From an uncultured Candidatus Binatia bacterium (GTDB lineage: Bacteria; Desulfobacterota; Binatia; UBA9968; JAJDTQ01): a DNA stretch of 64,000 nt. Within the stretch, counting starts at the first letter, position 1. Each line of letters opens with the position of its first letter. Both the position numbers and the translations under genes were made by a program. The notes beneath the pieces were generated by a model. It was not told the DNA's origin and searched no databases. It worked only from the letters and a program-made list of their open reading frames with translations. Shown here one piece after another: positions 4,902 through 46,460 of the stretch. Location of the stretch: NCBI GenBank assembly GCA_965204505.1, contig CBDBFB010000002.1, positions 2,370,778 to 2,434,777 on the forward strand, written 5' to 3'.

Positions 4902-5555
4902 GTGCGCCACGACGGCGACGAGAGGAGGTTCTGATGACGTAGCAGAGCCGAGTTGAAGCGCCTTGCTGCACAGGAGATGAGGGAAGGCCCCTCGGACTCG
5001 GGTTGCAGGACCAGGGTCCAAACCACCGCAAGCTGCTCCGGTTCAACGACCGGGGTGGTGAGCGTTGCGGAAAAGGCGGGAATCACCCGTCAGGTGTGCG
5101 CTGGTAAGACGAACGAAAGTGAACCGTTGATGACGTGTCGAAAGCGTAAAGATGTCGCCGAAACCAGGCTCCAGTCGTTGGTCTGGGATGGAGCTCGGAG
5201 GGTGCCTGCTGACTGGCCGAGCGGCGACCGGCATGAAGGCGGCGTGAGACCAGCGAGAGGCTCTTGTGCGGAACGTGGGAACCTGGAGCTCCGATGCCAA
5301 GGGAGACCTCCAAGCGGAAGAACCGCAAGGAGCCGAGTACCGAAGCGGAGCACAGGGACGGACGGGTCCGTATTAGCGATGAAGCCCGGCAATGCGGGCG
5401 GAGCGAAGGGACCCGACCCTCTGGCCAAGGATGGAGGCCAACCAGAGATGGGAGGAGCCGGTGTCTGAGGCTGGAGGGTAGGAGCCGGATGAGGCGAGAG
5501 TCTCACGTCCGGTTCTGGGAGGGCCGAGGGGTGAAATTCCCCTCGGCTACTCGAC
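4902..5555 (+). mobile_element. ORF-less group II intron Y (654 bp) nested in the RT ORF of intron X directly after FADD
   Basis: Begins GTGCGCC (the same 5' end as intron copies at 35879 and 39668). It contains domain V gagccggatgag-gcgagag-tctcacgtccggttc (5482-5515) and ends ...ggctactcgAC. Excision joins gatgac-t|ttgtcatcgccctcgaa, which encodes FADDFVIALE. Confidence 0.5.
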
Positions 5556-6249: not shown

Positions 6250-7077
6250 GTCGGGTAGGGCACTGGCGCGCGCACCTTTATTGGGCCACGTTTCCAGCCG
6301 CCCTCCCTAAAATTCCGTACGTCGGGTTTTCCCCGGTACGGCTTCAAGCTTCAGGCACCTCGCAGTTCGGCACGGAGCCTTCCGCAGGGTCGCCGAGGTC
6401 AAGGCCGATCCCGCCATACCCCCGAACGGACGCTGCGTTTGCTCCGCCCTTCGACGATGCCACTCGCCGGTTGATGCGTCGCCTCTGTGTGCGAAACCGC
6501 CGGTTGCAACATCGCCACCTGAGCCCAGAGGCCCTCGCTCCGGCCGGGTTATGTTGTCCCGGCCATCACCGCTTGTCGGCCTCATCCGCCAGTCTGGACG
6601 TCTCCGCCTCATTTCCCGGCACGACCGGTTATAGACGCGGTCTTTGACATTCGAGGATCATCCTGTCTGACCTCCAGACCTTCCGGACTTTCGCTGCGGT
6701 ACTTTCGAGTATTGCCGCCTTCAATACGCCGGGAGCCCCGGTGCGTGCGCCTCAGTTTCTTCCGCACCGGCACTGGCCATCGGGTAGGCAAGAAAACCCT
6801 TGGCAGCTCCAATTTATCCCGCAAATCAGCTTCACGCGGGAACGCCCTTTTCGACGCTTGATCCGTTCACTCTCGTTGCGGCCCTGCTCGTTGCTCGCCT
6901 TCCGGGCTGATCGCACAGGAGCGGCACAAAGGCCTCCCTGTCCCCCGAGGCTTTTACGTCCGGGCTTCCAGATCGCCGGGTCGCCCCGTGCGTCTGCCGG
7001 ATATGACTACGGCGCCAAACTGAGAACTGCGCCGGCGGGACTCTCACCCGCTAGTACCGCAGCTAGTCTCGCTGCGC
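6250..7077 (-). mobile_element. ORF-less group II intron (about 830 bp), a second copy of the element at 56380-57283, inserted near the 3' end of the IS66 remnant
   Basis: The reverse complement aligns over its length with 56380-57283. Shared segments include agtcccgccggcgcaRttctcagtttggcgYcgtagtcatatcc and a domain V gaagccgtaccggggaaaacccgacgtacggaat. Its 3' end ...ccctacccgAC abuts IS66 sequence. IS66 homology resumes at 7078 (cctcccctgggcgttcacacccgc). Confidence 0.5.
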
Positions 7078-7120
7078 CCTCCCCTGGGCGTTCACACCCG
7101 CTTTCCCGCTGATCCCGGGG

Positions 7121-7148
7121 CGCCCGCGGGCGCCCGCGGGCGCCCGCC
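7121..7148. repeat. 10-bp tandem repeat (CGCCCGCGGG), about 2.7 units. The homologous site upstream of paralogue 2 (about 14057-14075) has about 1.7 units
   Basis: Direct reading: cgcccgcggg cgcccgcggg cgcccgccac at copy 1 versus gcgcccgcgggcgcccgccact at copy 2. Confidence 0.6.
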
Positions 7149-7368
7149 ACTCGCCTCATCGCCGTGCCGCCTTCTTTGTCAAGGTGGTTTTTTCGCACCG
7201 TTTACCCCTTTTTTCGCTTCGGGCACGAAAGTAACACTTAAATAGATAATTGGGGCACACTGATGGCACACAAAATATGGATGGATATGGTATGGGGATT
7301 TTGACTTTGGGATTGTCACAAACGCGCGGGACTGCGCTCCGGCGCGCCCGCCGGCGGCGGACAAAGAC

Positions 7369-7383
7369 GGGAGGTTCGAAATG
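7369..7383 (+). promoter_or_regulatory. Strong Shine-Dalgarno (GGGAGG) plus ATG of a leader ORF that runs through the octamer repeat
   Basis: gacgGGAGGttcgaaATG has 6-nt spacing. The ORF MPLTFTALSHNRPAAQRPSG(PAAQRPSG)n continues through 7415-7486. The annotated adhesin ATG at 7496 has no recognisable SD. Confidence 0.5.
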
Positions 7384-7414
7384 CCCTTGACATTTACGGC
7401 ACTGTCTCATAATC

Positions 7415-7486
7415 GCCCAGCGGCCCAGCGGCCCAGCGGCCCAGCGGCCCAGCGGCCCAGCGGCCCAGCGGCCCAGCGGCCCAGCG
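7415..7486. repeat. Octanucleotide microsatellite (GCCCAGCG)x9
   Basis: Counted directly: nine perfect 8-bp units, followed by ggcagcgacATG. Confidence 0.95.
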
Positions 7487-7495
7487 GGCAGCGAC

Positions 7496-9494
7496 ATGAG
7501 GTGCGCCCGGCGGGAGGCCGGCCCGCCTGACCCGGCCGCCGCCCCTCGAGGGCGCGCACACAAGCTCCTCTCCCCTTCATCCGGACTGACCGGCGGCCGC
7601 CTGGCCGCTCCGGCGGGCTCGCGCCGGGCCGCGTCTCCGTGGCGCCGCCCCGCCCTCCTTCCCGTCCTCGCGCTGGTGCTCGGCGCGCTCGGCCTGTTCG
7701 CGGCTGCGCCCGCCGCGGCGCAGTCCACCATCTGGTCCGCGACGCTGACAGTAGATCAGGACGGCGTGTTATTCGGCTGCGACACCTTCATAGCTGGCCA
7801 CGACAGCTGCACCGTGGGGCTCACGGACGAGGACTTCGTGTACAAGGGTGTGACCTATCGAGTCAATCGGCTATTTGTGAGCTCTACCACTGGGCGGCTG
7901 ACGCTTGAGGTCGACCCGGATGCAGGGTCGAATCTTGCTGGGATGACGTTGCATCTCGGCACTGCGCAGCTAACCGTTGGTGATGATGTCAGAGTATCAT
8001 TCGGCAGAGCTTTAAGCTGGGCCAATTCCGGCGTGACCTGGACCGACAACCAGCAAGTCGCGGTGAGGCTGGTGGCGCCCCCGCCCTCGCTGGGCCGCGC
8101 CGGCAGCATGTCCGTCGACGGGTTCCACCCGATGGGACCCGGACGCATGAAGATCGCCGAGGGCACATCGATCACCTACGGCATCGTGATCCACCAGCCG
8201 CCGACCGCGGATCTGACCATCACGCCGCGACACCACAACGTCCGACCGGACGGCAGCGACTACCCCAACGTCGACAACAGCCTGCTCACGATCCACAACG
8301 CGGTCACCTGGAAAGCCGCCCCGCACCCCAACTACCTGAGCGGGGACTGGCAGCAGGCCAAATCGGTCGGGCTCACCGCGGTGGACGACAACGAGTGCAA
8401 GTCTCCGCCCGGCACCCGGTACTGGATCAGGCACCACGGCAGCGGCGGCGGTCCCGACTGGGGCGGGTGGGACCGGCAGGACCGGCACCATGGCCTGGTG
8501 ATCTCGATCGAAATCATCGACGACGACTGCAAATATCTGGCCGCTTCCCCGGGCCAGGTGTCGCCGGAGGAGGGCGGCAGCGCGACCTACACCGTCCGCC
8601 TGAAGACGCCGCTCGAGGACGCCGCGTACATTTCCCCGCGCATCAGCGTCCCCGGCGACAGCGACCCCGGCGCGGTCACGGTCTCTCCCGAGCGGATCCG
8701 GGTCGAAGCGGGAGACACGAGCCCGAAGACGTTCACGGTCAGCGCCGGAAGGGACGCGAACTCCCGTAACGAGGTCCTGGTTGTCGACCACAGCGTCGAC
8801 TCGCCGGAGGTCCCGGCGGATTACCTGGGCGGCCGGGTGACCGTCATTGTCCAGGACGAACAGAACGCGGCGAGGACGCACGAGCGCGACGCGCTGAGCG
8901 TGACCGGTCTTGCGCTCACGGCCGGTTCGGAGGCGGTGGCGCTGGTTCCGGCCTTCTCGCCGGGGGTGAAGTCCTACCGGGCGGAGGTCCCGGCGGGGAC
9001 GGCGGGCGTGACGCTGGCGCCGCACTGGAGCGGCGGGGCGAGCGTGCACGCGGGCTCGCGCCGGGGCGGGACGACCTTCACGCGCCCGGCGCGGGTGCGG
9101 CCCTCGGGCACGGCGGTCGCGCTGGCGCTGGCGCCGGACGGCGGCGCGACCGAGCTGTGGGTGATGGCGAGCGGCGGTTCGAGCGGCATGACGACCTACC
9201 GCATCGAGGTGACCGAGGCGCAGGCGCAGGCGCCCGAGGAACAGACCCCGCCGGAAGAAGAGGCCCAGACCGTGGCGGTGGCGTTCGGCAAGGTCCCGCC
9301 GGAGCATGACGGGCGGACGGCGTTCGCGCTGGACGTGCAGTCGGGCTCGAAGCCCGCTGCCGACGCGTTCAAGGTGACGGCCGGGAAGGTGACGGGCGTG
9401 GAGCCGCTGGACCCGGTGCTGTGGCGGGTGCGCGTCAAGCCGGAGTCCTGGAAGGACGTGAAGGTTGCGCTCGGCGCGGCGTCGGCGAAGGTCC
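7496..9494 (+). pseudogene. Autotransporter-like adhesin paralogue 1, N-terminal part (signal peptide plus passenger), interrupted by IS66
   Basis: ...RRPALLPVLALVLGALGLFAAAPAAAQS is a signal-peptide-like stretch. The passenger region follows. The ORF ends where IS66 right end gtaagcgttgccgc begins. The C-terminal half continues at 12118 in frame with paralogue 2. Confidence 0.7.
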
Positions 9495-9524
9495 GTAAGC
9501 GTTGCCGCTGGGGCACGTTGACTT

Positions 9525-11135
9525 TCAGCGAGAGTCGGGGGTGAAGGCCCAGGGGAGGAGCTCGTCGATGCGTGAGGCGCGATGCCCCGAGGCGATGGCT
9601 TTGAGGGTAGCCTTGAGGTAGGCGTACGGCTCGACGCCGTTCAGCTTGGCGGTCTCGACCAGCGAGGCGATGCGGCCCCAGGCGGCGGCGCCTTCGTCGT
9701 GGCCGGCGAACAGGGCGTTCTTGCGGTTCAGGGCCAGCGGGCGGATGAGGTTCTCGACGCAGTTGGTGTCCATCTCGACGCGCCCGTCTTCGAGGAACAC
9801 CAGCAGGCCGTCCCAGTGCCGGGCGATGTAGGCCAGCGCCTCGCCCAGGCGGGACTTGGCCGAGAGCCGCGCGCGTTGTTCCGTAAGCCACGCGCCGAAC
9901 TCCTCGACCAGGGGCGCGGTCCGGCTCCGGCGTTCGGCAAGGCGGTGTTCGGCCGAGGCGCCGCGGATCCCGTCCTCGATGGCGTAGAACTCCGCGATCC
10001 GCCGCAGCCCCTCGGCCGCGATCCCGGAGCGGTCGCTGTCGAAGACATCGTGGACCTTCCGCCTGGAATGCCCCCAACAGTACGCCAGGCGCACCTGCCA
10101 GTCCGGGCCCGCAAGCCGGTTGTAGCCGGCATAGCCGTCCACCTGCAGGATGCCCTTGAACCCCTTGAGGAAGGTCTCCGCGTGCTCGCCGCCGCGCCCC
10201 GGGGCGTAGAAGTACACCACCCCGGGCGGGTCCGGGCCGCCCCAGCTTCGGTCGTCGCGGGCCAGCGCCCACAGCCACCCCGTCTTGGTCCTGCCCCGGC
10301 CGGGGTCGAGGACCGGAGCCCGGGTCTCGTCCATGAACAGCTTCCCCGACCCCTTCAGGTGCGAGGCCAGCCGGTCCACCACCGGCTTGAGGTGGAACGC
10401 CGCCGCGCCCACCCACCCGGCCAGCGTCGAGCGGTGCAGATCGACCCCCGAGCGGGCGTAGATCCGGGACTGGCGGTAGAGCGGAGAGTGGTCGGCGTAC
10501 TTCGACACCAGCACGTGGGCGATGGCCCCTTCGGTCGGCAGCGCGCCCTCGATCAGGTGCGCCGGCGCCTCGGCCTGGGTGACCCCTTCCTGGCACACCC
10601 GGCAAGCGTACTTGGGCCGCACCGTGACGATCACCTGGAGTTGCGCCGGCACGATGTCCAGCCGCTCGGTGCGGTCCTCGCCTATGCGGGTCATCTCGCC
10701 GCAGCCGCATGGACACTGCGTGCTCTCGGGCTCGATCACCTCCTCTGACCGGGGCAGATGAGCGGGCAGATGGCCGATGTTGCGCTCGGGAGCCGAACGC
10801 TTCCGGCGAGGCGTCCCCCTGGCCGGCGCCGGCGCGGATTCCTTCGCCTCGGCCACGGCCGCTTCGAGGTCCTCGAACGCCAGTTGCAACTGGTCGGGAT
10901 GGAGCTTCTCGGACTTCTTGCCGTACACCGCCCGGTTGAGCTCCCGCACCAGGTGCTCGAGGCGGCGGTTCACGTCTTCAAGATGATGGTTCAGGTCTTC
11001 GAGATGGTGGTTGCGGTCGGAGAGGGAAGCGTTCTCGGTGCGAAGCGCCTCCATGGCCGCCTGCTGTCCCTCGAACAGCGCCCGCAAGGACGGCGCGAGG
11101 GATGAGAGACCGGCCTTGCCGAGGTTGACCTCCAT
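9525..11135 (-). CDS. tnpC: IS66-family transposase TnpC
   Basis: 536-aa ORF with Zn-finger-like CPCGCGEM..C..C, ...HSPLYRQSRIYARSGVDLHRSTLAGWVG..., DDE-region GWLWALARDD...LQVDGYAGYN... Confidence 0.85.
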   Translation of the reverse strand: MEVNLGKAGLSSLAPSLRALFEGQQAAMEALRTENASLSDRNHHLEDLNHHLEDVNRRLEHLVRELNRAVYGKKSEKLHPDQLQLAFEDLEAAVAEAKESAPAPARGTPRRKRSAPERNIGHLPAHLPRSEEVIEPESTQCPCGCGEMTRIGEDRTERLDIVPAQLQVIVTVRPKYACRVCQEGVTQAEAPAHLIEGALPTEGAIAHVLVSKYADHSPLYRQSRIYARSGVDLHRSTLAGWVGAAAFHLKPVVDRLASHLKGSGKLFMDETRAPVLDPGRGRTKTGWLWALARDDRSWGGPDPPGVVYFYAPGRGGEHAETFLKGFKGILQVDGYAGYNRLAGPDWQVRLAYCWGHSRRKVHDVFDSDRSGIAAEGLRRIAEFYAIEDGIRGASAEHRLAERRSRTAPLVEEFGAWLTEQRARLSAKSRLGEALAYIARHWDGLLVFLEDGRVEMDTNCVENLIRPLALNRKNALFAGHDEGAAAWGRIASLVETAKLNGVEPYAYLKATLKAIASGHRASRIDELLPWAFTPDSR

Positions 11136-11187
11136 GACAAGAATAGTATCACAAAATCAGGCACTTAGCAACAAAAAACGCCTCCGC

Positions 11188-11544
11188 TCACCCCGCCGCC
11201 GTACGCGGCCGCCGCACCCGCGGCGCCCACGCCCGACGCCAGTCCAGCCCTTCGAACAACGCCTCGAACTGCGCCCCCGTAAGCCGCATCACCCCGTCCC
11301 GCACCCCGGGCCACGCAAACCGCCCCTGCTCCAGACGCTTCGACGCCAACACCAGCCCCGTCCCGTCCCACCACAGCACCTTCACCCGGTCCAGCCGCCG
11401 CGGCCGGAACACCACCGCCACCCCGCTGTACGGGTCCAGTCCCAGCTCCTGCTCCACCACCGCCGCCAACCCGTCATGGCCCTTGCGGAAGTCCACAGGC
11501 CTCGTCGCCACCACCACCCGCGTCCCCGACCCCGGAGCTGTCAT
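11188..11544 (-). CDS. tnpB: IS66 accessory protein TnpB (Orf2)
   Basis: 118 aa. VDFRKGHDGLAAVVEQELGLDPYSGVAVVFRPRRLDRVKVLWWDGTGLVLASKRLEQGRFAWP is the conserved IS66 Orf2. ATGA overlap with tnpA. Confidence 0.8.
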   Translation of the reverse strand: MTAPGSGTRVVVATRPVDFRKGHDGLAAVVEQELGLDPYSGVAVVFRPRRLDRVKVLWWDGTGLVLASKRLEQGRFAWPGVRDGVMRLTGAQFEALFEGLDWRRAWAPRVRRPRTAAG

Positions 11545-12032
11545 CGCAGACCCCGCAGCGCCGAGGCTATCTCGGCGATCCGCACCGCGCCGATGGCTCC
11601 CTCAAGCCGTACCGTCACTCCCCGCGCCTCGATCGACACCGAACCCACCGCCGTTGTCTCCTCCACCACCTCCAACTCGGCGAAGGCAGGAACGCTCCCG
11701 GGCGCCGCCACCCCAGCCTTGCCCCCTGCCTGGCTCCGCTCCGCCCCAGCCTCAGCCAGGCTTCCCGCCGCCCCCGAACCCGGCGGCGTCAGCCTGCCCC
11801 GCTGTGCCAGCTTTCGCCATGCGCTCACCTGACTGACCGACAACCCGTGGCGTTGCGCCACTTCCCCCACCTTCACTCCAGGCCAGCAACACTCCCGGAC
11901 CACCTGCGCCTTCTCCTCGTCCGTCCATCTCCGATCCCCAGCCGTCGCCGGCGGCCGGACAACCTCCGTATCCCCGCCCGCCGCCGCCTCCCGGTCCAGC
12001 TCCTCCTCGACACCCCGTTCGACATCATCCAT
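11541..12032 (-). CDS. tnpA: IS66 TnpA (Orf1, HTH protein)
   Basis: MDDVERGVEEELDREAAAGG...RWTDEEKAQVVRECCWPGVKVGEVAQRHGLSVSQVSAWRKLAQRG. The start follows the GGAAGGAGGG SD. The upstream TTG start in the ORF track is not needed. Confidence 0.75.
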   Translation of the reverse strand: MDDVERGVEEELDREAAAGGDTEVVRPPATAGDRRWTDEEKAQVVRECCWPGVKVGEVAQRHGLSVSQVSAWRKLAQRGRLTPPGSGAAGSLAEAGAERSQAGGKAGVAAPGSVPAFAELEVVEETTAVGSVSIEARGVTVRLEGAIGAVRIAEIASALRGLR

Positions 12033-12117
12033 TGCCTTGCCCTCCTTCCTCTGGTTGGAGGGCAAGCCTACCCCCTCATACTCGGGGTTAGGAAGATGGG
12101 GTGTTCGTTACGCTTAC

Positions 12118-13888
12118 GAAGGTCCGGGGTCCGGCGCGCATCCGGGTCGCGGACGCGCGGGCGAAGGAAGGCAAGGACGCCTCGCTGGACTTCGCGGTGA
12201 CGCTGAGCCGCGCGGCGTCGGGGCCGGTGTCGGTGGACTATGCAACCGAGAACGGCACGGCCACGGCGGGCGAGGACTACACGGCCGCGTCGGGCACGCT
12301 CGTCTTCGCGGCGGGCGAGACGGAGAAGACGGTCTCGGTGCCGCTGCTCGACGACGCGCATGACGAGGGCAAGGAGACGTTCACGCTGAAGCTCTCGAAC
12401 CCGCAGGGGGCGTATCTGCGCGCGATGCACCGCGAGGCGAAGGGGGTCATCAGGAACGAGGACACGCTGCAGCGGGACTGGCTGGCGCGCTTCGGTCGCG
12501 CGGCCGCGGCGGACGCGGTGGCGGCGGTGACGGCGCGGCTGGAGACGCCGCGGAGCGCGGGCTCGCACCTGACGGTGGGCGGCCAGCGCCTGTCGCTCGG
12601 GGGCCGGGCGCTGGCGGAGGCGCTGACGGGGTTCGCGCGCCGCTACGGCGCTCAGGCCCCGGCGGACGGCCTGCATGAGCGGCGCGGGCGGCCGGTGACG
12701 GGGCGCGAGCTCTTGATGGGCACTTCGTTCCGCGCGGTGCTTGGCGGCGGGGGCTCCCGGTTCACGGGCTGGGGGTCGGGGGCGTCGGTGTCGCGGTTCA
12801 CGAGCGCGGCGCCGGGGCTTTCGCTGAGCGGCGAGGCGGCCACCGGGGCGGCGGGCATGGACTACGAGCGGGGCCGGCTGCTGACCGGGCTGGCGATGAC
12901 CCACAGCCTGGGCAAGGGCGCGGCGCAGGGCTCGGGCCGGAGCTACGCGATGGGGAGTTCGGTCACGACGGTGCTTCCCTACGCGCGCTTCGAGTTCTCG
13001 GAGCGGGTGTCGGCCTGGAGCTTGGCGGGGACGGGGTCGGGACGGCTGACGCTGGACCTGGACGGCGACGCGGCTGCGCGCCACGGCGCGGACCTGTCGA
13101 TGACGCTTGCGGCGGCCGGGGTGCGGGGCGAGGTGGTGACGCCCGCCGGGGCGGGCGGGTTCTCGCTGGCGCTCAAGGCGGACGCGTACTGGGTGCGCAC
13201 GGAGTCGGAGCGGGTGTCCGTGCCCGGGGTGGGGAACCTGGCGGCGGCGCGCGCGGACGCGAGCCGGCTCCGGGCGGTGCTGGACGGGTCGCGGGCGTTC
13301 ACGCTCGGTGGCGGCGGGACGCTGACGCCATCGGTGGAGCTCGGGGTGCGTCACGACGGGGGCGAGGGGGGCAGCGGCACGGGCATGGAGGTCGGCGCCG
13401 GAGTGGGATGGGCGGACCCGTCGCGGGGCCTTGACGTGGCGGTCCGGGTGCGCGGGCTTGCGGCCCATGCCGGGGAGGGCTACCGGGAATGGGGCGTGTC
13501 GGGGTGGCTGAGGGTCGTGCCGGGGGCGGCGGGACGGGGCCTGTCGATGTCGCTCACGCCGTCCTGGGGCGCGGCCCCGGGGGGCTCGGAGCGGCTGTGG
13601 AGGATGCCGGAGGCTTCGAGGCTGGCTGCAAACGACAATGCGGCTCCATCCGGGCGGCTGGACGCGGAGGTGGGCTACGGCATGGCGGTGTTGGGCGGGC
13701 GCTTCACCGGGACGCCGAACCTCGGGTTCGGGGTGTCGGACACGGCGCGGGAGTACCGCATGGGCTGGCGGCTCGCCTCGGTGGCGTCAGGCTTCGAGCT
13801 CAGTCTCGACGCCACGCGCCGGGAGACGGCCGACGGTGGCGGGCCGCCCGAGCACGGGGTGATGCTGGGCGGAACCGTTCGCTGGTAG
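12118..13888 (+). pseudogene. Autotransporter-like adhesin paralogue 1, C-terminal part (Calx-beta domain plus beta-barrel translocator)
   Basis: VDYATENGTATAGEDYTAASGTLVFAAGETEKTVSVPLLDDAHDEGKETFTLKLSNPQGA is a Calx-beta domain. The Gly/Ala-rich C-terminal 450 aa end ...GVMLGGTVRW (terminal aromatic), which is consistent with an autotransporter barrel. Near-identical to 16975-18735. Confidence 0.7.
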
Positions 13889-14295
13889 GAGCGCAGCGGC
13901 TCCGCCCGGCCCCGTCGCGGACCGCGCGCACGGCGCGCCGCATCAGCCGGCGGCGCTGTTCCGTGGAATGTCTTGCGGGGGCGGCGACACCCGTCAATGC
14001 GCCTGTAAACAAAGGGCCTGTAAACAAAGGAATTGAGCCATGTCCCGCTGATCCCGGGGCGCCCGCGGGCGCCCGCCACTCGCCTCATCGCCGTGCCGCC
14101 TTCTTTGTCAAGGTGGTTTTTCGCACCGTTTACCCCTTTTTTCGCTTCGGGCACGAAAGTAACACTTAAATAGATAATTGGGGCACACTGATGGCACACA
14201 AAATATGGATGGATATGGTATGGGGATTTTGACTTTGGGATTGTCACAAACGCGCGGGACTGCGCTCCGGCGCGCCCGCCGGCGGCGGACAAAGA

Positions 14296-14311
14296 CGGGA
14301 GGTTCGAAATG
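14296..14311 (+). promoter_or_regulatory. SD GGGAGG plus leader ATG (copy 2)
   Basis: Identical to 7369-7383. Leader ORF 14309-14515 (68 aa) reads (PAAQRPSG)n and stops 4 nt into the adhesin ATG region, out of frame. Confidence 0.5.
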
Positions 14312-14342
14312 CCCTTGACATTTACGGCACTGTCTCATAATC

Positions 14343-14502
14343 GCCCAGCGGCCCAGCGGCCCAGCGGCCCAGCGGCCCAGCGGCCCAGCGGCCCAGCGGC
14401 CCAGCGGCCCAGCGGCCCAGCGGCCCAGCGGCCCAGCGGCCCAGCGGCCCAGCGGCCCAGCGGCCCAGCGGCCCAGCGGCCCAGCGGCCCAGCGGCCCAG
14501 CG
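14343..14502. repeat. Octanucleotide microsatellite (GCCCAGCG)x20
   Basis: Counted directly: twenty perfect units, then ggcagcgacATG (14512). Confidence 0.95.
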
Positions 14503-14511
14503 GGCAGCGAC

Positions 14512-17500
14512 ATGAGGTGCGCCCGGCGGGAGGCCGGCCCGCCTGACCCGGCCGCCGCCCCTCGAGGGCGCGCACACAAGCTCCTCTCCCCTTCATCCGG
14601 ACTGACCGGCGGCCGCCTGGCCGCTCCGGCGGTCTCGCGCCGGGCCTTGTCCCCGTGGCGCCGCCCCGCCCGCCTCCCCGTCCTCGCGCTGCTGCTCGGC
14701 GCGCTCGGCCTGTTCGCGGCCGCGCCCGCCCAGGCGCAGTCCCAGATCTGGTCGGCGACGCTGACAGTCGGTGATATCGATGACGACGGGGCGTATCTCG
14801 GCTGCGATAACTCTGGCTGCCCCTCGGCGCTCACGGACGATGAACTCGAGCACAACGGTGAGAAATATACCGTCGAAAACCTTTATTACAACAATGGTAG
14901 GGTATCGTTGAAGTTGGGCGGGATACAACCGAGCGCGACGTCACCGGCCCCGACCCCAGGGTCGAAGTTTGACGGGATGGTGTTGCATCTCGGCACTGTG
15001 CGGCTACCCGTTGGTGGAGTTGTTAGATTTAGCGATACCGGTTGGCACAACTGGTATGTCGACCCGCAATGGACCGACGGCCAGCGGGTCGCGGTGAAGC
15101 TGGAGATTCCGGCGAAGTCGCCGTGGTTGTGGCCGGACGGGACCCGGCATCACGACAAGAACCAGATCTGGTCCACCACGATGGCGGCGAAGGCCCTCGA
15201 GCCGACGCGATGGGGCACGGACTCGTCCGGCTGCAGGACCGGTGTGTCGGGGGGCACTTGCCCCCTCGCGATGGGCGCCAACAGGTTCACTTACGCGGGC
15301 AATACCTACACCATCAGCGATTTCTATCACCGCAACGGCACTCTGTTCGCGGGCTTGAGCTCGGGCAGCGCCGCCGCGATCACCGCTGCAAGGTCGCTGA
15401 TGCTGATCGTCAAGTATCCCGCTGGCGCCGAAAGGCGGTTCCCCCTGAGGAATCTGACCGCCAGCGGTTCTTCGGCCACCGCCTCCTGGCCCGTCGACGA
15501 CATGCGCTGGGGCTCCTACGGTCATCCACACCCCACCGACCCACAACGAAATCCCGCCGTGTGGGCGGCCAACTTCGCGGTGACTCTGGCCGTGGTCGAG
15601 GTGCCGGAGCCTGTGACCGTGACCGTGACGAGTCCGGCGCCGCGCACCCACACGGTGACCGTGTCGGTGCCCACGGCGGTCGCCGCGGAGACCATCATAT
15701 CCCTGGGCACGTACGGCAGGGTCGGCCACCGTGTGTGGACGGACGTGAGGGATCCCGACCTGGTAAGCCATTGCGATCCGATGGATGCGTGGGACCCGGT
15801 CTTCCTGAATTCCGATCGCAAGTATCCGTTCGCCTACATCCAGGCGGGGCAGCGGAGCACCACGTTCAACCTTTGCCTTCTCGGAGTCCCGAAGGACGTG
15901 GAGAACCAGGTGCTGTCAAACCAGGTCACCGTGTACCTGCCGCGGGGGAGGTCGTCGGTGATTTACGACATCAACGTCGGCAGCGCCTACGGCGGCGGGT
16001 CCGGGACCGCGGAATTCGAGGGCGGCGAGGGGCCGGGCTCCGGCGGGGAGGAGGAACGCGACCCGCTGACGGCGGTCTTCGAGGAGGTGCCGGAAGAGCA
16101 TGACGGCACGGAGTTCGCGTTCCTGGTGCGTCTGAGCGAGACGGTGGGGAGTTTCAGCCGGTCGCCGCGCTTGTGGTCGTTCGCGGTGACGCAGGGCCGG
16201 GTGACGGGCGTGGAGCAGATCGGCGCCGGGCTGTGGCGGGTCACGGTGCGGCCGGCGTCGCCGAGCGACGTGACGGTGACGCTTGCGGGCGGGCGGGACT
16301 GCGACGACGAGCCGTCGGGCGCGGTGTGCACGCCGGACGGGCGGGCGCTGTCGAACACGTCGAGTGCGAGGGTCGCGGCGGGTCCGCAGCAGCAGCAGGA
16401 GGTGTTGGTCACGCCGGAGCCGGCCGACGTGCGGGTGGTGCCGGGCGACGGCAGCCTGACGGTGAGCTGGACGGCGGTGGCGCACCCGCGCGTCGCTGCG
16501 GAGCGGGTGCAGCACGCGCTGCGCTGGAGCCAGGAGGCGGGCGTGTGGGCCAACCCGTCGGGCAACAACGGCATCGCGGTGGAGGCCGGCGTGAACGGCT
16601 ACACCATCACCGGGCTGAGGAACGGCGTGGCGACCGGGGTGTTCGTGCGCGCCTTCGTGGGCCGGCTCCGGTCGGAGCGCAGCGAGCACTCGAGCGGGTG
16701 GGTCCGTGTGAAGGGCGAGTCGACGACGCCGCGGGCGGCAACCCAGACCGTGGCGGTAGAGTTCGGCAAGGTCCCGGCGGAGCATGACGGGCAGACGGCG
16801 TTCGCGCTGGACGTGCAGTCGGGCTCGAAGCCCGCCCCGGAGGCGTTCAAGGTGACGGCCGGGAAGGTGACGGGCGTGGAGTCGCTGGACCCGGTGCTGT
16901 GGCGGGTGCGCGTCAAGCCGGAGTCCTGGAAGGACGTGAAGATAGCGCTCGGCGCGGCGTCGGCGAAGGTCCGGGGTCCGGCGCGCATCCGGGTCGCGGC
17001 CGCGCGGGCGAAGGAGGGCAAGGACGCCTCGCTGGACTTCGCGGTGACGCTGAGCCGCGCGGCGTCGGGGCCGGTGTCTGTGGACTATGCAACCGAGAAC
17101 GGCACGGCCACGGCGGGCGAGGACTACACGGCCGCGTCGGGCACGCTCGTCTTCGCGGCGGGCGAGACGGAGAAGACGGTCTCGGTGCCGCTGCTCGACG
17201 ACGCGCATGACGAGGGCAAGGAGACGTTCACGCTGAAGCTCTCGAACCCGCAGGGGGCGTATCTGCGCGCGATGCACCGCGAGGCGAAGGGGGTCATCAG
17301 GAACGAGGACCCGCTGCAGCGGGACTGGCTGGCGCGCTTCGGTCGCGCGGCCGCGGCGGACGCGGTGGCGGCGGTGACGGCGCGGCTGGAGACGCCGCGG
17401 AGCGCGGGCTCGCACCTGACGGTGGGCGGCCAGCGCCTGTCGCTCGGGGGCCGGGCGCTGGCGGAGGCGCTGACGGGGTTCGCGCGCCGCTACGGCGCTC

Positions 17501-30072: not shown

Positions 30073-32054
<1,982 letters not shown>

Positions 32055-33530: not shown

Positions 33531-35878
33531 CTCAAGTCCTCCCGCCTTGTGTTGTGCCGGGGAGGAACCACACGGCGAAATCTCAATCTCTCGAACGAGG
33601 TCGCGGCCAAGCCGCGCCATCAGTGACAAAAGCCGATCGTGGTTCGGGCCAAGCTCCAGAACGGGTGCCTGTGCACGCCATTGAACCGACGGCCTCGACT
33701 CCCCGGCCACCGTCACTTCACCGCATCACCGCCCCCCGGTGCAAGCCCCGGTTACTTTCGCGACTAAGCCGCCGCGTCGCGCGGGGGTGCCCGCTCCGGA
33801 GAATCTTCGCCGCCAGCCCTGCGCTTTCGCTGCCACAACTGCTTCCTTGCATTGACGCCTCAGGACCGCCCGCGATCCACGGCTTCGGCCGGGTATGCTC
33901 TGACCTCTCCCTCCCGCTCAAGTGCCGCTCGGGCTAACCCGTTGATATCCAGCGTCTTTTGTGCCCCCATCGCCGATGTCCCGCCATGCGGTTCCGTCTC
34001 TACGGCGGAGCCGGTATTCTTCCACACCTGCCGCACCATGGTGCCTGTCGTGCCTTGTCTGCGACCGGGTGCGCTCCCTTGCGCAGGTCGAGCCCCTCCG
34101 ACCCGCTCGCACCATGGAAAAGGTGTGTTCTCTCCGTAACACGGGCGTATACCGATCGTGTACCGGTCCAAACACACGCCTGCGATTTCAAGGACTTGGC
34201 GGACTCCAGGCTGCAACGCAAAAGCGACGCAAGGCCATTCACCCTGGCGAAATCCTCCAGCTTGTATCCTACGGGTGATCCGGGCGGTCGCGCCCGCCAG
34301 CGACCGGCAGCGGCTTTTCCATGACAGCCCCGGCGTGACGAGGATGCTCGGACGAGGCGCGGTCGCAGGCTTGCATGCTCAAGGCCATGAACCCCGCCGC
34401 GTGAGCGCCCTCGCGCGCTAGAGTACGGAGCATCGGACGAATGCGCTGGAGAATCCGCTGCCGGGATCGCGGTTCCCTGGGGAACCCAACCGTGCAGACG
34501 AACGACAGGCTGCGCACGGGCATGAACTGCGGCGGGCCGCTGAGCCCGGGAGCGGGAGGGGGGCGGTGGAATGCCCCGGCCCCGGCCCGGTGGCGATGCC
34601 GGGGTTCCCCGAATCGATCCGGGGATGGGTCTCTCTCGCCGGCGACGGCCTCGGGGCTGGCCGCGAGGAGGGAGGGTGTCTACAGTTCGAGGTCCACGTC
34701 GAGCAGCTTTTCTTCCGGTTCGCGCGCCTCTTCCTGTACGGGCTCGCGGTCCGGTCCACGTGAGCGGTCCTCCTCGGGTTCGGTTTCCCGTTCCGGGTCC
34801 CAGGATTCGAGACCGTCCGCGTCCCGTCCGGCACTCCGTTCCGGCGATTTCAGGTCGTCCTCCCAGTCGAGGTCATGCCCCGGTTGATGCCCGCCCCCGT
34901 GTCCCGCGTCCGGCTGAAGCTCGGGTTCGTACTCGCGATCGATGCGGTCCACGTGGCCGGCGTCCCGCTCTTCGGGCGGTTCGAGGCCCAACTCCATCTC
35001 GTGCGCGGCTTCTCTGGCGACTCCATCCAACGCCGAGATCCGCTCTCCAGTCGCTCTCTCCAGTTGTTCGGAGAGCTTCCTGGCATCGTCTGTGACCAGC
35101 TCGGCATGGTCCCGTGCGCGGCTGATGGCCACGTAGAAGGCTTTCTGGTTGGTCAGGTTCGGATTGCCGGCGGGCATTGCGGCAACGATATGGTCTACGG
35201 TCCTGCCCTGAAAAGCATGCACCGTATTCGCCCAGGCCCTGTCCATGTGGCGGAGTTGCGGGTCGTCTTCGTCCAGTCCGGCTTCCTTTCCGTTCTCCAG
35301 CCGGAACCGGACTCCCTCCTTTTCGATGGATTCCACCTCCGCTGTCTCGCCGTTCACGAGTTCCGAGCCTGGATCGTTGCGCGTCCACCGGACCCAATCG
35401 CCCGCCCGGAGCTCCATCTCCTCGCTCCTGTAGACCTCCACGCCGCCCTTGGCGGCGGCAATCCGGTACGGCCGCCAGGCCACAAGATCCCCACCGCCGC
35501 CGTCCAGCCAGACCGTGTTGCGCTGGTAGTCGACCCGCGCGACCTCGCGCTCGTCTCCTTTTTCCACCCCGAGCGTCCTGTACTGCCGGTTGAAGATCAC
35601 CGTGTCTCCGGCCGAGTAGTTGGAGGCCCGGGCCATCTCCGCCCGGGTCAGGCCCCTCGGCACGAGCTTCTTGCCCTGGCGGGCGGGACCCGAGACCGCG
35701 CCTTCGGCGATCAGATTCTCGCGGACCCTCGTGTTGATCTCGTCCCGCAGAGCCCGAGTTGGGGCGATCACCCCTGCTGCCGTGCGTTGCTCGGGAGACA
35801 GTTTCAGCCAGCGTTCGGCGGCTTCGAGGCCGATGTCCTCCCGTTCCACCTGCACAACCCGGTCGCCGAGCTTCTCGA

Positions 35879-37864
35879 GTGCGCCGTGCAAGGCGCCATC
35901 CCTTAGCGGGTTGCGAGACCCGCCCGGCAACTGTCGCTCCAGCCGGTAGCAGTCGGAGCGGACGATGGAGGTAACGACATGGTTTGAAGCACTCCGATGA
36001 AACGGGCCGCCTTGGGCGGCTCAGCGACCATGCGGGCCGCAACGCGAGTGAACGCCGAGCAGGCCTCGAAACTGGCAACGCGGAAGCCGACCCGCCTCGA
36101 GTACGGGAAAGGCTGCCATCGGCCGGGAAGCGAGCGACACACGCACCGGCCGGTTCCGCCGGGGTATTGGCGGCGGCACGCATGGAAGAAGGGGATGGAC
36201 GCAACACGGGAAGCCCCGGCGGTGGCGTAGCACGCGCCAACCGACAACCCGCGAGGGATGGGTCGGGCCGTTCGGGGTGGCGGAGAGGTCCGTAGTACCG
36301 CGGAAGCCGGGTAATGCCGGTGGAGGGAAGGGGCCTTGGTTCGAGAGCAGCGTTTGGAAGGAGGAAGGGACATGGGGACTGGCGAGAGCCTATCCGACCC
36401 GGAAAAGGTCCGGAGACTCCAGACGGCGCTACATGCGAAAGCGAAGGAGGCCCCGGGCTTTCGGTTCTACTCACTGAGCGACAAGGTGTGGCGCGCCGAC
36501 GTGATGGCGGTCGCCTGGCAGGAGGTCCGCCGCAATGGCGGAGCCGCCGGGGTGGACGGTCAGACGGTAGCGGACATCGAGGCGCAAGGCGTGGAGCGGT
36601 GGCTTGGGGAACTGAGGCGGGACCTGAAGGCGGGAACCTATCGGCCCGAGGCGGTCCGGCAGGTTCTCATACCAAAGAAGCAGCGTGGGAAGTTGCGGCC
36701 CCTGGGCATTCCCTGCATACGGGACAGGGTGGCGCAGACGGCGGCGATGCTAGTGCTGTCGCCGATCTTCGAGGCCGACCTGCAACCGGAACAGTATGCC
36801 TACAGGCTGGGCCGGAGCGCGAATGATGCTGTCAGGCGCGTACACCGGCTGTTGAACACGGGCCACCGCGAGGTGGTGGACGCGGATCTAACGGACTACT
36901 TCGGCCAGATTCCGCACGCCGAACTGCTCAAGTCCGTCGCCCGGCGCGTGAGCGACGGGCGGATGCTGGGCTGGGTTAAGGCGTGGCTTGAGATGGCGGT
37001 CGAAGAAGACGACGGCAAGGGCGGCAAACGCCGTACGAACCGGGCGCGTCGCGAGAGGAAGGGAACCCCTCAAGGTTCTCCGATCTCCCCGTTGCTCTCC
37101 AACATCTACATGCGCCGCTTCATACTGGGCTGGAAGGTGCTGGGCCATGCCCGGCGCTTCAAGGCGGAAGTCGTCAACTATGCCGACGACCTGGTTGTGC
37201 TCGGCAAATCGTCGTCAGCGGAAATGCTGGCGGTGGTCGAGAACCTGATGGAACGGCTGAAACTGACGGTCAATGCCGAGAAGACCCGATGCTGCCGGGC
37301 GCCGGAGGACTCGTTTGAGTTCCTTGGCTATCGGATTGGACGCAACTACCGCCCGCACGGGAAGGGGAGCTACATCGGCACCCGGCCCAGCAAGGCGAGC
37401 GTCCAGAGCATCTGCCGCAGGATTAGCGAACTAACGGAACCCCGCTATGGGCTCCTGGACCAGGAGGTCGTGGCCGAACGGCTCAATCGACTGATGCTCG
37501 GGTGGTCAAAGTACTTCATCCTGGGCCAGGTCGAGCCGGCCTATGCCGCGATCGACAGGCACGCTATCAAGCGGCTGCTCCAGTGGCGGCGTCGCAAGCA
37601 CAAGGTGAGAGCCCGTAATTATGTGCAATACGGGTACGAGCAGCTCTGGACTGAGCACGGTCTCATCCGCCTTGCACCGCGAGCGACACGCTTTCCGTGG
37701 GCGAAGGCATGATCTCGTCCGAGAGCCGTGTGCGGGAAAACCGCACGCACGGTTCGATGAGCGGGGACTGGAAACGCGGCCAAGGGAGCCGGACTGAGGC
37801 CCGGAGCGAAAGCGACGGACAAGCCACCGGACCCTAAAGCTGGCGCGCCAGTCCTCGACTCTAC
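35879..37864 (+). mobile_element. Group II intron (copy 2, 1986 bp) inserted antisense in the relaxase gene
   Basis: 5' GTGCGCCGTGCAAGG and 3' ...cctcgactctAC. Identical to 39668-41653. Confidence 0.75.
36372..37712 (+). CDS. Group II intron reverse transcriptase/maturase
   Basis: 446 aa from MGTGESLSDPEKVRRLQTALHAKAKEAP. YADD present. About 75-80% identical to the 30562-31902 protein. Confidence 0.85.
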   Translation: MGTGESLSDPEKVRRLQTALHAKAKEAPGFRFYSLSDKVWRADVMAVAWQEVRRNGGAAGVDGQTVADIEAQGVERWLGELRRDLKAGTYRPEAVRQVLIPKKQRGKLRPLGIPCIRDRVAQTAAMLVLSPIFEADLQPEQYAYRLGRSANDAVRRVHRLLNTGHREVVDADLTDYFGQIPHAELLKSVARRVSDGRMLGWVKAWLEMAVEEDDGKGGKRRTNRARRERKGTPQGSPISPLLSNIYMRRFILGWKVLGHARRFKAEVVNYADDLVVLGKSSSAEMLAVVENLMERLKLTVNAEKTRCCRAPEDSFEFLGYRIGRNYRPHGKGSYIGTRPSKASVQSICRRISELTEPRYGLLDQEVVAERLNRLMLGWSKYFILGQVEPAYAAIDRHAIKRLLQWRRRKHKVRARNYVQYGYEQLWTEHGLIRLAPRATRFPWAKA

Positions 37865-39667
37865 ACGCGGTCTTCACCTCGCCTGCCAGGCCCGCCCGCA
37901 CCGCTTCCTTGAGCTCCATGTCGCGCTGGCGAAGGATCTCGTCCATCACCGCGGTCTGCATTCCGGCGCGCCTGAGTTGCTCGAATGGCTTCCCCGCCTC
38001 CACCGCCCCGAGCTGCTTCTCGTCCCCGACCAGCACCACCCGAGGGACCCGGAGCGTGGTCGCGGCCTTGAGGAGATCCCGCATCTGCTCGCTCGACGCG
38101 AGCGATGACTCGTCCACCACCAGGACCGTCCTCGAGAACGAGGCGCGCAACTGGCGCAGACCCTTCACCGTGCCCCGGCCCTCGATGACTCCCGCGTGGC
38201 GGGCCAGGAACCGTTGCAGAGTCTCCGATTCGATTCCGGATTCCTGGGAGAGCGTGCGCGCGGCCGACGCCGAAGGCGCAAGGCCCACCGCCCGGTAGTC
38301 GCGGCTCTCCGCCAGCGTCCGAAGCCGCTTCAGCATCGTCGTCTTGCCCGTTCCCGCATAGCCCTGCACTCCCACCACGCGGTCTTTCGATGCGAGCACC
38401 ATCCTGACCGCTTCCTTCTGCCCCTTGTTGAGACGTCCTCCGTGGAGCTTCGTCTCCGCAATCCAGCGCCGCATGATCGCCTTCCCCGAGCCCTGGCCCG
38501 CGTGCATCAGCGCGATGGCCTCGGACTCGCGCCCGATTGCCGCGTCCGTGGTCCAGTGCCTGCCGTGATCCAGACCCCTGGCGGCGTGCAGTCCGCCCTC
38601 GCGTTCGAGGTCCGAGACGGCCCGTTCCGCCGCCTCCACCGTGACCGCGCCCGGCTCCCGGGACAGTGCAGCCGCCAGGAGGTCCCCATGGCCGAACACC
38701 GCCTGGCGTTCGGAAAGGTGCTCGACCGCCCAGGTTGCCGCCTCCGCGGCAGGCTGTCCCCGGTCCGTGAACAGGTCCGGCGCCGGGAGTTCTCGTTCCG
38801 CCTTGCGCGCCTTAGCCCGCACCGCCTCCGCCGAAAACCCCATCTCCGCGGCCTGGCGCTCCCAGGACCGGCGCAGTTCGCCCCGTTCCACGTCGCGCTT
38901 CGCCGCCCGCGTCATCAGCGTGGCCCGCGCCGCCAGGTGCGGGTTGTCCCCCGTCCCGCCCAGGCCGTGCTCTCTCATCGCCGCCTCGATCTCCGACCGC
39001 CGCGTCGAGAACTCCTCGATCACCTCCCGTGATACCCCGGCGATCTCGAACCGCCCGTCCGGGTGCGTCTTCTCTATCCCGTACCCGAGATCCCGGAGCC
39101 CTTGCGCCAGCTCCGCCCGGTAGATCGCTCCGATCGTCATCTTGCCCTTGAAGAGCCCGTCGTCCACCATTGTGCGCCACCTTTGATCCTCGCCTTGCAC
39201 CATGTTGGCGACAACGGCATGAGTGTGGAGTTGAGGGTCCAGGTTGCGGGAGGTGTCGTGGCGGAAGGTCGCCGCCACCATCTTCTGGCCGCCGGCCCGG
39301 ACCATCGCGCCCGTCTCCCGGTCCTGCATCCGGGTCTCGACGGCATTCTTCTCGATCCACGCCAACGTCCTGCCCACTGCCCTGTCATGGGCGTCCACGA
39401 TCCGCTCGTCTCCGCCCACCAGCGCCATGAGCGACACCGACTTGGGTGCGGACAGCGTCACGTCACGGCCCGGACGGTGCTGAATGTTGCCGTCGAGGTC
39501 CTTGCGGCCGAGTTGGCGCTCGCCGGGTACCTTGCCCTCGAGGATGGCCCGGAACGCATCGGAGTCTACCGGGCCGGAGAGCCCGAGTTCTTCCGCGCCC
39601 CGGCCGGCCCAGGCGCTCGCTTCCTTGTGGGCGGGATCGTCTTTCCCGTAGTACCCATCCCTTTCGA

Positions 39668-41653: not shown

Positions 41654-42272
41654 AATAGCTGGCGCCCTGCGACGGGGAGGCGATCTTGCCGATGGACGCT
41701 ACCATGGCGGACGCCTCCCGCGTGGTGCGTGTTTCGGTGGTTGTACGGTGTCCATGCCGCCCGCATACGCGCTTCCAGGGCCAGGAACAAGGTACGTGTG
41801 ACGCGACTATCAGCCGTGGCAGCGAATGGCTGCGATTGTCTTTGGCCGGGGGATGTCCCACCGAATTCACGGAACGGGACCGGTGTGCTTCCGCGCCCCT
41901 TGTGGCTGCTGTCAGCTGTTTCTCGGCACTTCAGGACGTGGACATTTTGGATCCGTGGAGGCTCCGTTTCCCCGCTCCCCGGCGGTTGCCGGGGAGCCCG
42001 CCTGCCATCCCTGTCCATTCGGCGACGGCCGGGGCTCCGCGCAAGAAGGGGGAGGGCGCGTGGACAACGAGGCTAACGAAATCCAGGGGCGTCTGGTCGG
42101 CCCAACGCCGGAGACAGCCCGGCATCGAAGGGCCGCGATGTCCGCGGCCGTTCGTGGCCGATAGGAAGTGACCGAGGCGGAGGAAGAACTGCCCAGGACA
42201 ATCGGCAACCAAGCGGCCAGACCCCGCTTCATAAGGGAATTATAGCGGATAGTCACACTCAACCCCCGCCCC

Positions 42273-45783: not shown

Positions 45784-46460
45784 CTACAACCCAACCGCCG
45801 TGGCCTTCACGGCCGCGGTGTCGCTGGATCGACGGAACGGCGTCGGCGGGTTCGAGGTTGAACCGGTCGGTGCCGTTTTTCGTCCTCCGAAGGGAGGGTT
45901 TGTGTGTCGGTCCGTCCAGGGCTATGTCATTGGCCGCCGTTGAGCAATCCTAACGCATGCTGAAACCCATGAAAGGACTCCTTGGCGCATTCTGCGCCGG
46001 ACCGGCGCTTTTCATCTGTTTGCACCGGTACACGACTGACATACGGCCGTGTTACGGAGAGAACACGCCTTTTCCATGGTCATGCGGACAGGACGCTAGC
46101 TAGCCGCGCGGGCAGTTGTGGAATCTCCCGAGTTGCGGTGTTGTGATCGCCATCCAAGGCGCGTCACCCTTTCCACCACACGTGCGCGTCATATCCCTTG
46201 ACAATCAGGCGCACCCCGTCCTAACGTCTTCCTTGCGATCAACTACGCGGAGCCCGTGTGTCGGGTCATCCGCCGAATACAAGAACCCTCGCACGGGCAC
46301 GGGGTAGCTCCCTGTGCCTTGGTGAATACGCGGAACCTCCACAACTCCGTTGTAGTTGGTCGCAGTGGCCCGGCAATCCTGCCGGGTCGTGGTGATCTAT
46401 TCGATGGTCCGGTGTTGAGAATTGCCCACGGGTCTATCGGTCCATCAAGAGAGGTTCGAG

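Follow-up and report, generated by a model that had tools for sequence, protein, structure and literature searches.

Repeat-driven phase variation is textbook biology of the host-adapted pathogens Neisseria, Haemophilus and Moraxella. A comparable arrangement is present in a 64,000-nucleotide stretch of contig CBDBFB010000002.1 from an uncultured Candidatus Binatia bacterium; this whole stretch is termed the window here. The window contains two copies of a 5′ cassette in which an octanucleotide repeat tract lies inside a short leader open reading frame (ORF), ahead of a main ORF for a signal-peptide protein. A three-state translational switch set by the number of repeat units (fusion, coupled restart and overshoot OFF) appears to be the best explanation of the locus, and confidence in it is slightly better than even. 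A literature search found nothing on the cassette or the repeat sequence, nor on repeat-based contingency loci in sponge symbionts.

In the opa genes of Neisseria, a (CTCTT)n tract in the signal-peptide coding region is responsible for slipped-strand translational phase variation. In the window cassette, as in opa, a perfect repeat whose unit length is not divisible by three separates a canonical Shine-Dalgarno (SD) sequence and its ATG from the signal-peptide region of a surface-protein gene. In both cases there is a multigene family whose copies are set independently, with most copies out of frame at any one time. The two differ in that the cassette unit is 7–8 bp in length compared with 5 bp in opa, and in that the cassette has a promoter-like pair of hexamers directly 5′ of the tract and, directly 3′ of it, a conserved restart codon that has no SD and is overlapped by TGA. 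In addition, the cassette tract is 40–50 codons away from the hydrophobic core, and the cassette is common to several bacterial classes and at least two phyla.

The Haemophilus influenzae genes lic1A, lic2A and lgtC have tetranucleotide repeats at the 5′ end of the coding region together with alternative start codons, and display three expression levels. The shared property is that a repeat with more than one usable start can yield three states (strong, weak and off). All alternative ATGs of the lic genes are 5′ of the tract, whereas the cassette has one start 5′ of it, with an SD, and one directly 3′ of it, which has no SD and overlaps a stop. The lic genes also differ in unit length and in the kind of gene product. 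In Moraxella catarrhalis, an (AGAT)n tract in the 5′ untranslated region (5′UTR) of the adhesin gene uspA2 modulates the expression level. This too is an adhesin-gene 5′UTR repeat, but the uspA2 unit is a tetranucleotide, and there is no leader ORF and no overlapping stop and start. Translational coupling by an overlapping stop and start (ATGA) is found between adjacent genes of many operons; in the cassette, by contrast, a hypermutable repeat makes the overlap conditional, since it is formed in one of three frames.

The adhesin genes hmw1A and hmw2A of H. influenzae carry (ATCTTTC)n in the 5′UTR (PMC12721329; PMC8262952). These repeats are untranslated, with a long 5′UTR hairpin that is cut by RNase III; expression falls with repeat length, and repeat instability is linked to transcription through the repeat (PMC12721329; PMC8262952). 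The window resembles hmw1A/hmw2A in that adhesin loci occur as a pair of paralogues, and a 7–8-bp repeat, set independently in each, lies 5′ of the coding sequence and just 3′ of the promoter (in the window, the promoter-like pair). However, each tract in the window lies within a leader ORF that has an SD, and folding does not predict a hairpin of the hmw kind: shuffled sequences fold as well as the 221-nt putative 5′ region (z = −0.05), and z is +1.28 for the tract by itself. Pairing between the tract and a downstream arm in the manner of hmw was rejected, as the folding is unsupported relative to shuffles. By analogy, translation at the locus would be controlled much as in opa or lic1A, while its layout is like that of hmw1A/hmw2A.

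Tandem Repeats Finder shows the (GCCCAGCG) microsatellite as 9.1 units at positions 7415–7487 in copy 1 and 20.1 units at 14343–14503 in copy 2, in both cases with 100% matches and no indels. These are long, pure tandem repeats of a short unit, as in simple-sequence contingency loci. Each tract is entered by a leader ORF whose ATG (7381 and 14309) is separated by a 6-nt spacer from GGGAGG, and which reads the repeat as (PAAQRPSG)n. Because T is absent from the tract, all three frames are free of stops. Neither main ATG (7496 and 14512) is preceded within 20 nt by GGAG, GAGG or AGGA. The distance d from leader ATG to main ATG is 115 nt in copy 1 (d mod 3 = 1) and 203 nt in copy 2 (d mod 3 = 2), and thus both leaders are out of frame; by arithmetic, fusion of leader and main ORF takes place at 10 units in copy 1 (a gain of one) or at 19 units in copy 2 (a loss of one). 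The essentials had been noted in a sequence-only reading of the window, i.e. the two 8-bp tracts read through by leader ORFs, the main starts without an SD, and the offsets with their one-unit corrections, and are borne out by the repeat search, the sequence and its translation. The two leaders end differently. In copy 1 the leader runs in the +1 frame with respect to the main ATG and stops at TGA 7528–7530, 32 nt inside the main ORF. In copy 2 the leader ends in ACA-TGA, and its TGA (14513–14515) overlaps the main ATG (14512–14514), which gives ATGA.

In the proposed switch, the unit number would decide in which frame ribosomes from the leader SD and ATG reach the main ORF. With d mod 3 = 0, the leader would be fused to the secreted protein as an N-terminal extension. 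With d mod 3 = 2, the leader ribosome would end on a UGA sharing bases with the main AUG, where it could restart; independent initiation at this AUG should be poor because it has no SD and adjoins a strong GC palindrome. With d mod 3 = 1, the ribosome would pass the AUG and stop within the gene, 32 nt from its start (elsewhere 74 nt), which would be the OFF state. Copy 2, with 20 units, would be in the coupling frame. Copy 1, with nine units, would be in the overshoot frame, and is inactivated anyway by an IS66-family insertion sequence.

The sequence-only reading regarded both copies as OFF or low. For copy 2, OFF is not borne out: with the leader stop overlapping the main start in coupling geometry, this copy is in the coupling frame and so is not demonstrably OFF. 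For copy 1 the overshoot frame agrees with OFF, but the point is overtaken by the insertion: to judge from the interrupted reading frame, IS66 inactivates the gene whatever its unit number. The 682-amino acid product of copy 1 is identical to the database protein P0036, which is called there from ATG 7496; its main ORF has the GC palindrome at 7500–7527 and a signal-peptide-like segment at residues 49–76 (7640–7723). The term adhesin, applied to both products in that reading, is plausible but inferred, because its sole basis is the Calx-beta and cadherin-like domains, which are indeed present.

Self-comparison of the window shows that the cassettes at 7123–7493 and 14053–14422 match at 98.9%. 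The upstream tract flanks of the two copies are identical (249/249) and the downstream flanks nearly so (237/250), and the tracts differ by 11 units. The copies also have 1.77 kb in common at the 3′ end (98%), while their N-terminal passenger regions are unlike. At the 5′ edge of the duplicated cassette there is a second variable repeat, CCCGCGGGCG, with 3.5 units at 7114–7147 in copy 1 and 2.5 units at 14053–14076 in copy 2.

Related loci were collected in two ways. An octamer survey, which consisted of a scan for four units with one genome per species, yielded at least 105 loci, and about 27 among the matches listed share the window architecture. A pattern scan of metagenomes with the conserved start region added approximately 35 loci, mostly from the Aplysina aerophoba sponge metagenome MKWU01; these are unusable for judging conservation of the ATGA and the palindrome arms because the DNA pattern forces those features. 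About 60 related loci, mainly from sponge-associated bacteria and mostly from metagenome-assembled genomes (MAGs), have one common cassette. Its order is SD, leader ATG, TTGACA/TATAAT-like pair, 7- or 8-bp tract, SD-less ATG overlapped by TGA, and GC palindrome, followed by a long n-region, a Sec signal peptide and variable adhesion-type cargo. The start codon right after the tract is ATG (rarely GTG or TTG) in almost all relatives, and it opens a conserved N-terminus of 50–75 amino acids, M-x-C-A-R-R-x-A-G-A...RARL..LLPxLALLLGAL.LFAAAPAQAQ (alignment A1). The cargo behind this N-terminus is unrelated from locus to locus and includes Calx-beta, cadherin-like, FN3, LRR, Big_9 and SWM domains and, in one case, an autotransporter beta-domain. 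On sequence comparison, the conserved unit is the regulatory cassette, not the gene.

Conservation of the leader is the first line of evidence for translation through the tract. In the main-ATG frame alone, the leader ORF would pass for a coincidence, as 11 of 14 relatives lack a start and do have a stop in that frame right before the tract, where a TATAAT is also located. This view covers one frame and is misleading; coincidence was rejected because a scan of all three frames shows conserved SD and ATG leaders. GGAG or GAGG, followed after 4–9 nt by an ATG with an ORF that reaches the tract, is found in 25 of 60 unique related upstream regions on the sense strand, compared with four on the antisense strand. 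Among true repeat-bearing loci the figures are about 22 of 36 and two, respectively, by our count. The SD (GGAGG, GGAG or GAGG) is 5–8 nt from the leader ATG in some 20 distinct leaders. The leader SD and ATG are situated 2–150 nt 5′ of the −35-like hexamer, and the ORF crosses both hexamers and the tract. Each hexamer has a stop in one of three frames, and yet about 19 of 21 distinct leaders (our count) are open across both TTGACA and TATAAT, where chance would give at most ~0.44 per locus by our estimate. The leader peptide is another matter. Variable columns by codon position number 20/18/27 of 46, the ratio of nonsynonymous to synonymous changes is about 3:1, and this codon-position comparison detected no selection at the amino-acid level and no conservation of peptide sequence, which fits the notion that translation matters and the peptide does not. 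In one pair of relatives a 1-nt indel alters the leader peptide and the ORF stays open.

The frames found in relatives provide a second line of evidence. In locus L105, 1610 codons without a stop (translated to locus position 7229), among them those of the signal peptide, join up with the leader ATG alone, and the GTG behind the tract belongs to another frame. In L098 a start codon is missing 3′ of the tract, and the signal-peptide frame is open back through the tract, while in L059 a CTG stands at the post-tract start position. As read from these loci, in some relatives the protein is makeable only from the leader ATG. A continuous ORF from leader ATG to signal peptide is realized in L016, L105, L107, L119, L120, L208 and L209. 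A leader stop TGA that overlaps the SD-less main ATG is found in copy 2 and in about a third of the relatives. Of 18 loci collected without selection for NTGA, 17 have it at the main start, with codon 2 varying (T, R, N, S, K, M), which suggests that the stop is preserved for frame 2. Frame 1 reaches a conserved TGA at +32 or +74 inside the gene. Where the repeat is short or missing, d mod 3 is 0 in four loci (L108, L120, L208 and L142) and 2 in two (L178 and L153), but never 1.

A third line of evidence comes from the tracts themselves. Alleles from different samples, with flanks identical at 250/250 positions on both sides, have 8.8 and 15.8 units in one case, and 8.2 and 4.2 in another. Unit-number polymorphism between otherwise identical alleles or copies, a hallmark of contingency loci, is thus seen both in related loci and between the two window copies. 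Paralogues with near-identical cassettes within one genome are set independently: a gammaproteobacterium has tracts of 38, 31, 58, 26 and 12 units, and another genome has 18.6, 15.6 and 12.1. Purity remains perfect up to 58 units. Other units occupy the same interval in orthologous or paralogous cassettes (GCCAGCG, GCCCACG/GTCCACG, GCGCCGA, GCCGGAC, GGGCCATC and ACGGGCCA); each of the seven unit types known at the site has a length of 7 or 8 bp and contains no stop. Copy 2 has its closest orthologue in a locus whose product is 77% identical, and there 13.6 copies of GCGCCGA replace the octamer. The sequence-only reading had singled out the 8-bp unit as unusual, and the 7-bp units at orthologous sites speak against this. 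Whatever the unit, the tract is bounded by the −10-like hexamer on the 5′ side and the start codon on the 3′ side. The presence of at least seven unit sequences in exactly this one interval argues for selection for a repeat at the site. The location is also that of a contingency locus, with the leader ATG and the promoter-like pair on the 5′ side and, on the 3′ side, the main ATG of a gene for a signal-peptide protein. To judge from such comparisons, the tracts are hypermutable simple-sequence repeats in a horizontally shared, conserved 5′ cassette. The locus has the general features of contingency loci in repeat purity, 5′ location and unit polymorphism; a reversible effect of unit number on expression, the remaining feature of the class, would be predicted.

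The architecture is present inside megabase-scale contigs of Binatia (OZ241976, 4.77 Mb), of Alphaproteobacteria (OZ219866, 3.66 Mb; CBDBCG01, 2.16 Mb) and of several orders of Gammaproteobacteria (CBDBDW01, 4.9 Mb; OZ241969, OZ241900 and OZ241837). The closest relatives of the window are on contigs of assembly ERZ25068511 and in an alphaproteobacterial MAG. The closest cassettes, all from ERZ25068511 (L209, L210, L211, L212 and L106), have 4.4 to 18.6 copies of the 7-bp GCGCCGA and not the octamer; the TTGACA–TATAAT gap in the cassettes of this assembly is only 7 nt, and a 5.99-Mb genome has three paralogues, each of them in the overshoot frame. The DNA that encodes the signal peptide (window 14665–14780 compared with L013, L024, L041, L105 and L137) is 80–93% identical across loci assigned to different classes and phyla. 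Vertical descent would lead one to expect far less, and the cassette has probably been transferred horizontally or undergone gene conversion. On contig CBDBDW010000002, the minus strand of locus L034 has the promoter-like pair and (GCCCAGCG)26 270 nt 5′ of a gene with RTX-like GGxGxD repeats. The RTX-like gene is preceded by an AGGAG SD of its own and lacks a signal peptide; remnants of the family n-region lie between module and gene, an arrangement that suggests reuse of the module via recombination.

Several observations weigh against a switch by reading frame. The frames of leader-bearing loci are about uniform (~10:12:12), which is equally compatible with frame being irrelevant, and the absence of frame 1 among short-repeat loci concerns six loci (p ~0.09, our estimate). 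That the unit is never a multiple of three is weak evidence because the 7-mers may be derived from the 8-mer by single-base deletion. The leader falls short of the tract in L181 and L195 (TAA at codon 7) and in L042 (TAG in the −10 region), and the main ORFs there are intact. The post-ATG palindrome has 87% of cells paired compared with 28–49% in slid controls, but covariation is absent and RNAalifold does not recover a hairpin; on this evidence the feature is a conserved GC palindrome and at most a putative RNA structure. The remaining objections concern the promoter-like pair. The two cassette pairs are the sole matches of at least 11/12 to TTGACA-N15-19-TATAAT on either strand of the 64-kb window, and 23 of 27 relatives among the matches listed have a TATAAT-like hexamer (at least 5/6), in GC-rich DNA, 1–9 nt 5′ of the tract. 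The leader start would be missing from transcripts that begin at this internal pair. Upstream of the leader, the window yielded no convincing promoter, and the σ70 matches in the AT-rich stretch 5′ of copy 1 are weak (8/12 at best); relatives have a conserved TACAAT/TACATT or TTGAAT-17-TCAAAT about 45–50 nt 5′ of the leader SD. Finally, the L034 module has promoter-like pair and tract without a traversing leader, upstream of a gene with its own SD.

In relatives, TTGACA-like hexamers are 15–30 nt farther 5′ than the TATAAT-like hexamer. The hexamers fall in different leader frames and are read as LT or LDI, and as YN, II or TIM, which indicates that they are conserved as DNA and not as peptide. 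In several loci (L013, L024, L041, L100, the L121 group, L160 and L208) the spacer is 20–22 nt long and has GC-rich dyads, e.g. TCGGCGCCGA and GGTGCACC. Such overlong, dyad-bearing spacers may recall MerR-type promoters, or instead an RNA hairpin within the leader. A switch by repeats in the promoter spacer, as with poly-G/C or TA between −35 and −10, was rejected, as the tract starts 1–3 nt 3′ of the −10-like hexamer. A template-strand G-quadruplex, (CGCTGGGC)n = G3N5, is a weak candidate as judged from the sequence, given its C-rich loops.

The promoter-like pair raises the question of whether length, and not frame, tunes output. Transcription would then start at TTGACA/TATAAT, the tract would make up nearly the whole 5′UTR, and translation would begin at the post-tract ATG, as in a rheostat of the hmw1A/hmw2A or uspA2 kind; transcript level, stability or translation would be tuned, and the leader would be accessory or serve read-through transcripts only. 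The H. influenzae hmw 5′UTR, with paralogous adhesin genes and independently set 7-bp repeats, is a precedent (PMC12721329). The positions of the hexamers described above speak for such a mechanism, as do the placement of the tract between −10-like hexamer and start codon with any unit, the retention of the post-tract start as ATG, GTG or TTG, the L034 module, and the intact genes with variable tracts behind the truncated leaders of L181 and L195. However, regulation by length leaves unexplained the conserved upstream SD and ATG and the openness of the leader across both hexamers, as well as L105 and L098, in which there is no in-frame start 3′ of the tract. It also has to contend with a main ATG that lacks an SD and is next to a GC palindrome, with TTGACA–TATAAT spacings that are mostly non-canonical (15, 20–22, 7 or ~30 nt), and with the absence of a long hairpin like that of hmw. 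We consider regulation by length alone doubtful, though it is the most serious competitor of the three-state switch.

The sequence-only reading had proposed a translational switch of the opa type. The conserved leader, its openness into the tract and the variable unit number uphold the translational part, while the internal promoter-like pair has no place in the opa model. Perhaps both processes operate, as the promoter-like pair probably gives a second, leader-independent transcript that has the tract as its 5′UTR and overlays the three-state switch.

The repeat might also be a neutral by-product, i.e. a slippage-prone GC-rich sequence in a tolerant, low-complexity N-terminal or 5′ region that travels with a recombining cassette and switches nothing. 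A near-uniform distribution of frames and a leader peptide free of amino-acid selection would be expected in that case, and (GCCCAGCG)n-like arrays do occur in unrelated intergenic contexts of actinomycetes. Neutrality is nonetheless improbable in view of the seven or more unit sequences at exactly one interval of orthologous and paralogous cassettes, the perfect purity of arrays of up to 58 units, and the nature of the genes, which are surface or secreted multigene families and as such typical targets of contingency loci. That the tracts are assembly or sequencing errors, or the cross-phylum spread a result of misbinning, is very improbable: L021, L026, L061 and L013 are indeed on 1.6–7.5 kb contigs of short-read MAGs, where binning is unreliable, but the architecture is also inside the megabase-scale contigs listed above, and independent assemblies give identical flanks with different unit numbers.

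With regard to biological role, the cassette most likely switches surface proteins on and off at random in the manner of pathogens, a behaviour undescribed for sponge symbionts. 'Eukaryote-like' adhesion proteins are thought to mediate host recognition. If the three-state switch is correct, uncultivated sponge symbionts of different phyla stochastically vary such proteins (Calx-beta, cadherin-like, FN3 and LRR). The conserved and horizontally spreading unit would then be a regulatory cassette and not the genes. The architecture would join translational frame switching and a promoter-proximal 5′UTR repeat, which are usually alternatives, and add a conditional overlap of stop and start. The broadest form of the proposal is a portable, cross-phylum phase-variation cassette for families of surface proteins with adhesion domains in sponge symbionts, in which the three-state switch and a length-dependent 5′UTR transcript are layered. 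Stochastic surface variation like that of pathogens would then be a general strategy of uncultivated mutualists, with the regulatory module itself spreading horizontally. This form is put forward tentatively, with rather less than even confidence. Its range would comprise Binatia, Alphaproteobacteria and several orders of Gammaproteobacteria, and possibly Chloroflexota and Gemmatimonadota.

The features of the two cassette copies and their surroundings are listed in Table 1. The terminator-like hairpin, as predicted from its stem and T-run, separates cassette copy 1 from upstream transcription.

Table 1. Positions of cassette features, main ORFs and group II intron matches in the window.
Feature	Position	Strand	Basis or remarks
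Terminator-like hairpin and T-run, 5′ of cassette copy 1	7166–7198	+	Stem 7166–7188, tail TTTTTTCGCAC
AT-rich stretch	7200–7330	+	42% GC compared with 66.5% GC in the window; candidate upstream promoter site for leader ORF
Shine-Dalgarno GGGAGG, leader copy 1	7369–7374	+	Read from sequence; SD-(5–8 nt)-ATG kept in relatives
Leader ORF copy 1, 49 codons	7381–7530	+	MPLTFTALSHNR(PAAQRPSG)n...; translation
Promoter-like pair, copy 1	7387–7413	+	TTGACA (7387–7392) N15 CATAAT (7408–7413); inside leader ORF, 1 nt 5′ of tract
Main ORF copy 1, 682 amino acids	7496–9544	+	SD-less ATG (ATGA), long n-region, cadherin-like domain; truncated by IS66
IS66-family insertion in copy 1	9494–12118	−	Transposase 9525–11135 on minus strand; self-comparison
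Displaced 3′ part of copy 1, Calx-beta domain	12117–13889	+	98% identical to copy 2 16964–18736
Shine-Dalgarno GGGAGG, leader copy 2	14297–14302	+	Read from sequence
Leader ORF copy 2, 68 codons	14309–14515	+	Sequence and translation
Promoter-like pair, copy 2	14315–14341	+	TTGACA (14315–14320) N15 CATAAT (14336–14341); consensus match search
Main ORF copy 2, intact, 1407 amino acids	14512–18735	+	Long n-region, Sec-type signal peptide, WSATLTV-type N-terminal module, Calx-beta domain
Group II intron matches	551–627, 1336–1555, 4979–5555, 30099–32054, 35904–37864, 39693–41653, 55314–55535, 56404–56586; weak 6924–7053 (−)		Rfam

The Rfam search found no family at the tract or its flanks, and its only matches are to group II introns. 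There are at least six such introns in the 64 kb (D1–D4 and domain V/VI), with a reverse transcriptase/maturase ORF at 30331–31902, and the region is unusually rich in mobile elements. One pair of introns, at 35871–37865 and 39661–41654, is 99.95% identical. Several IS66-family copies (orfA, TnpB-like and transposase) are situated at 9494–12118 and 19201–23239. The segment 19201–20347 is duplicated exactly at 20346–21492 and is bounded by perfect tandem arrays of three 109-bp units (19198–19529 and 20339–20674). An ORF of 1188 amino acids at 46422–49988 has four 315-bp repeats (46944–48225) and weak FN3/LapA-like matches; it appears to encode a large repetitive surface-type protein without the cassette. 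A SIR2-like domain protein (PF13289) at 50349–52091 is a possible defence gene.

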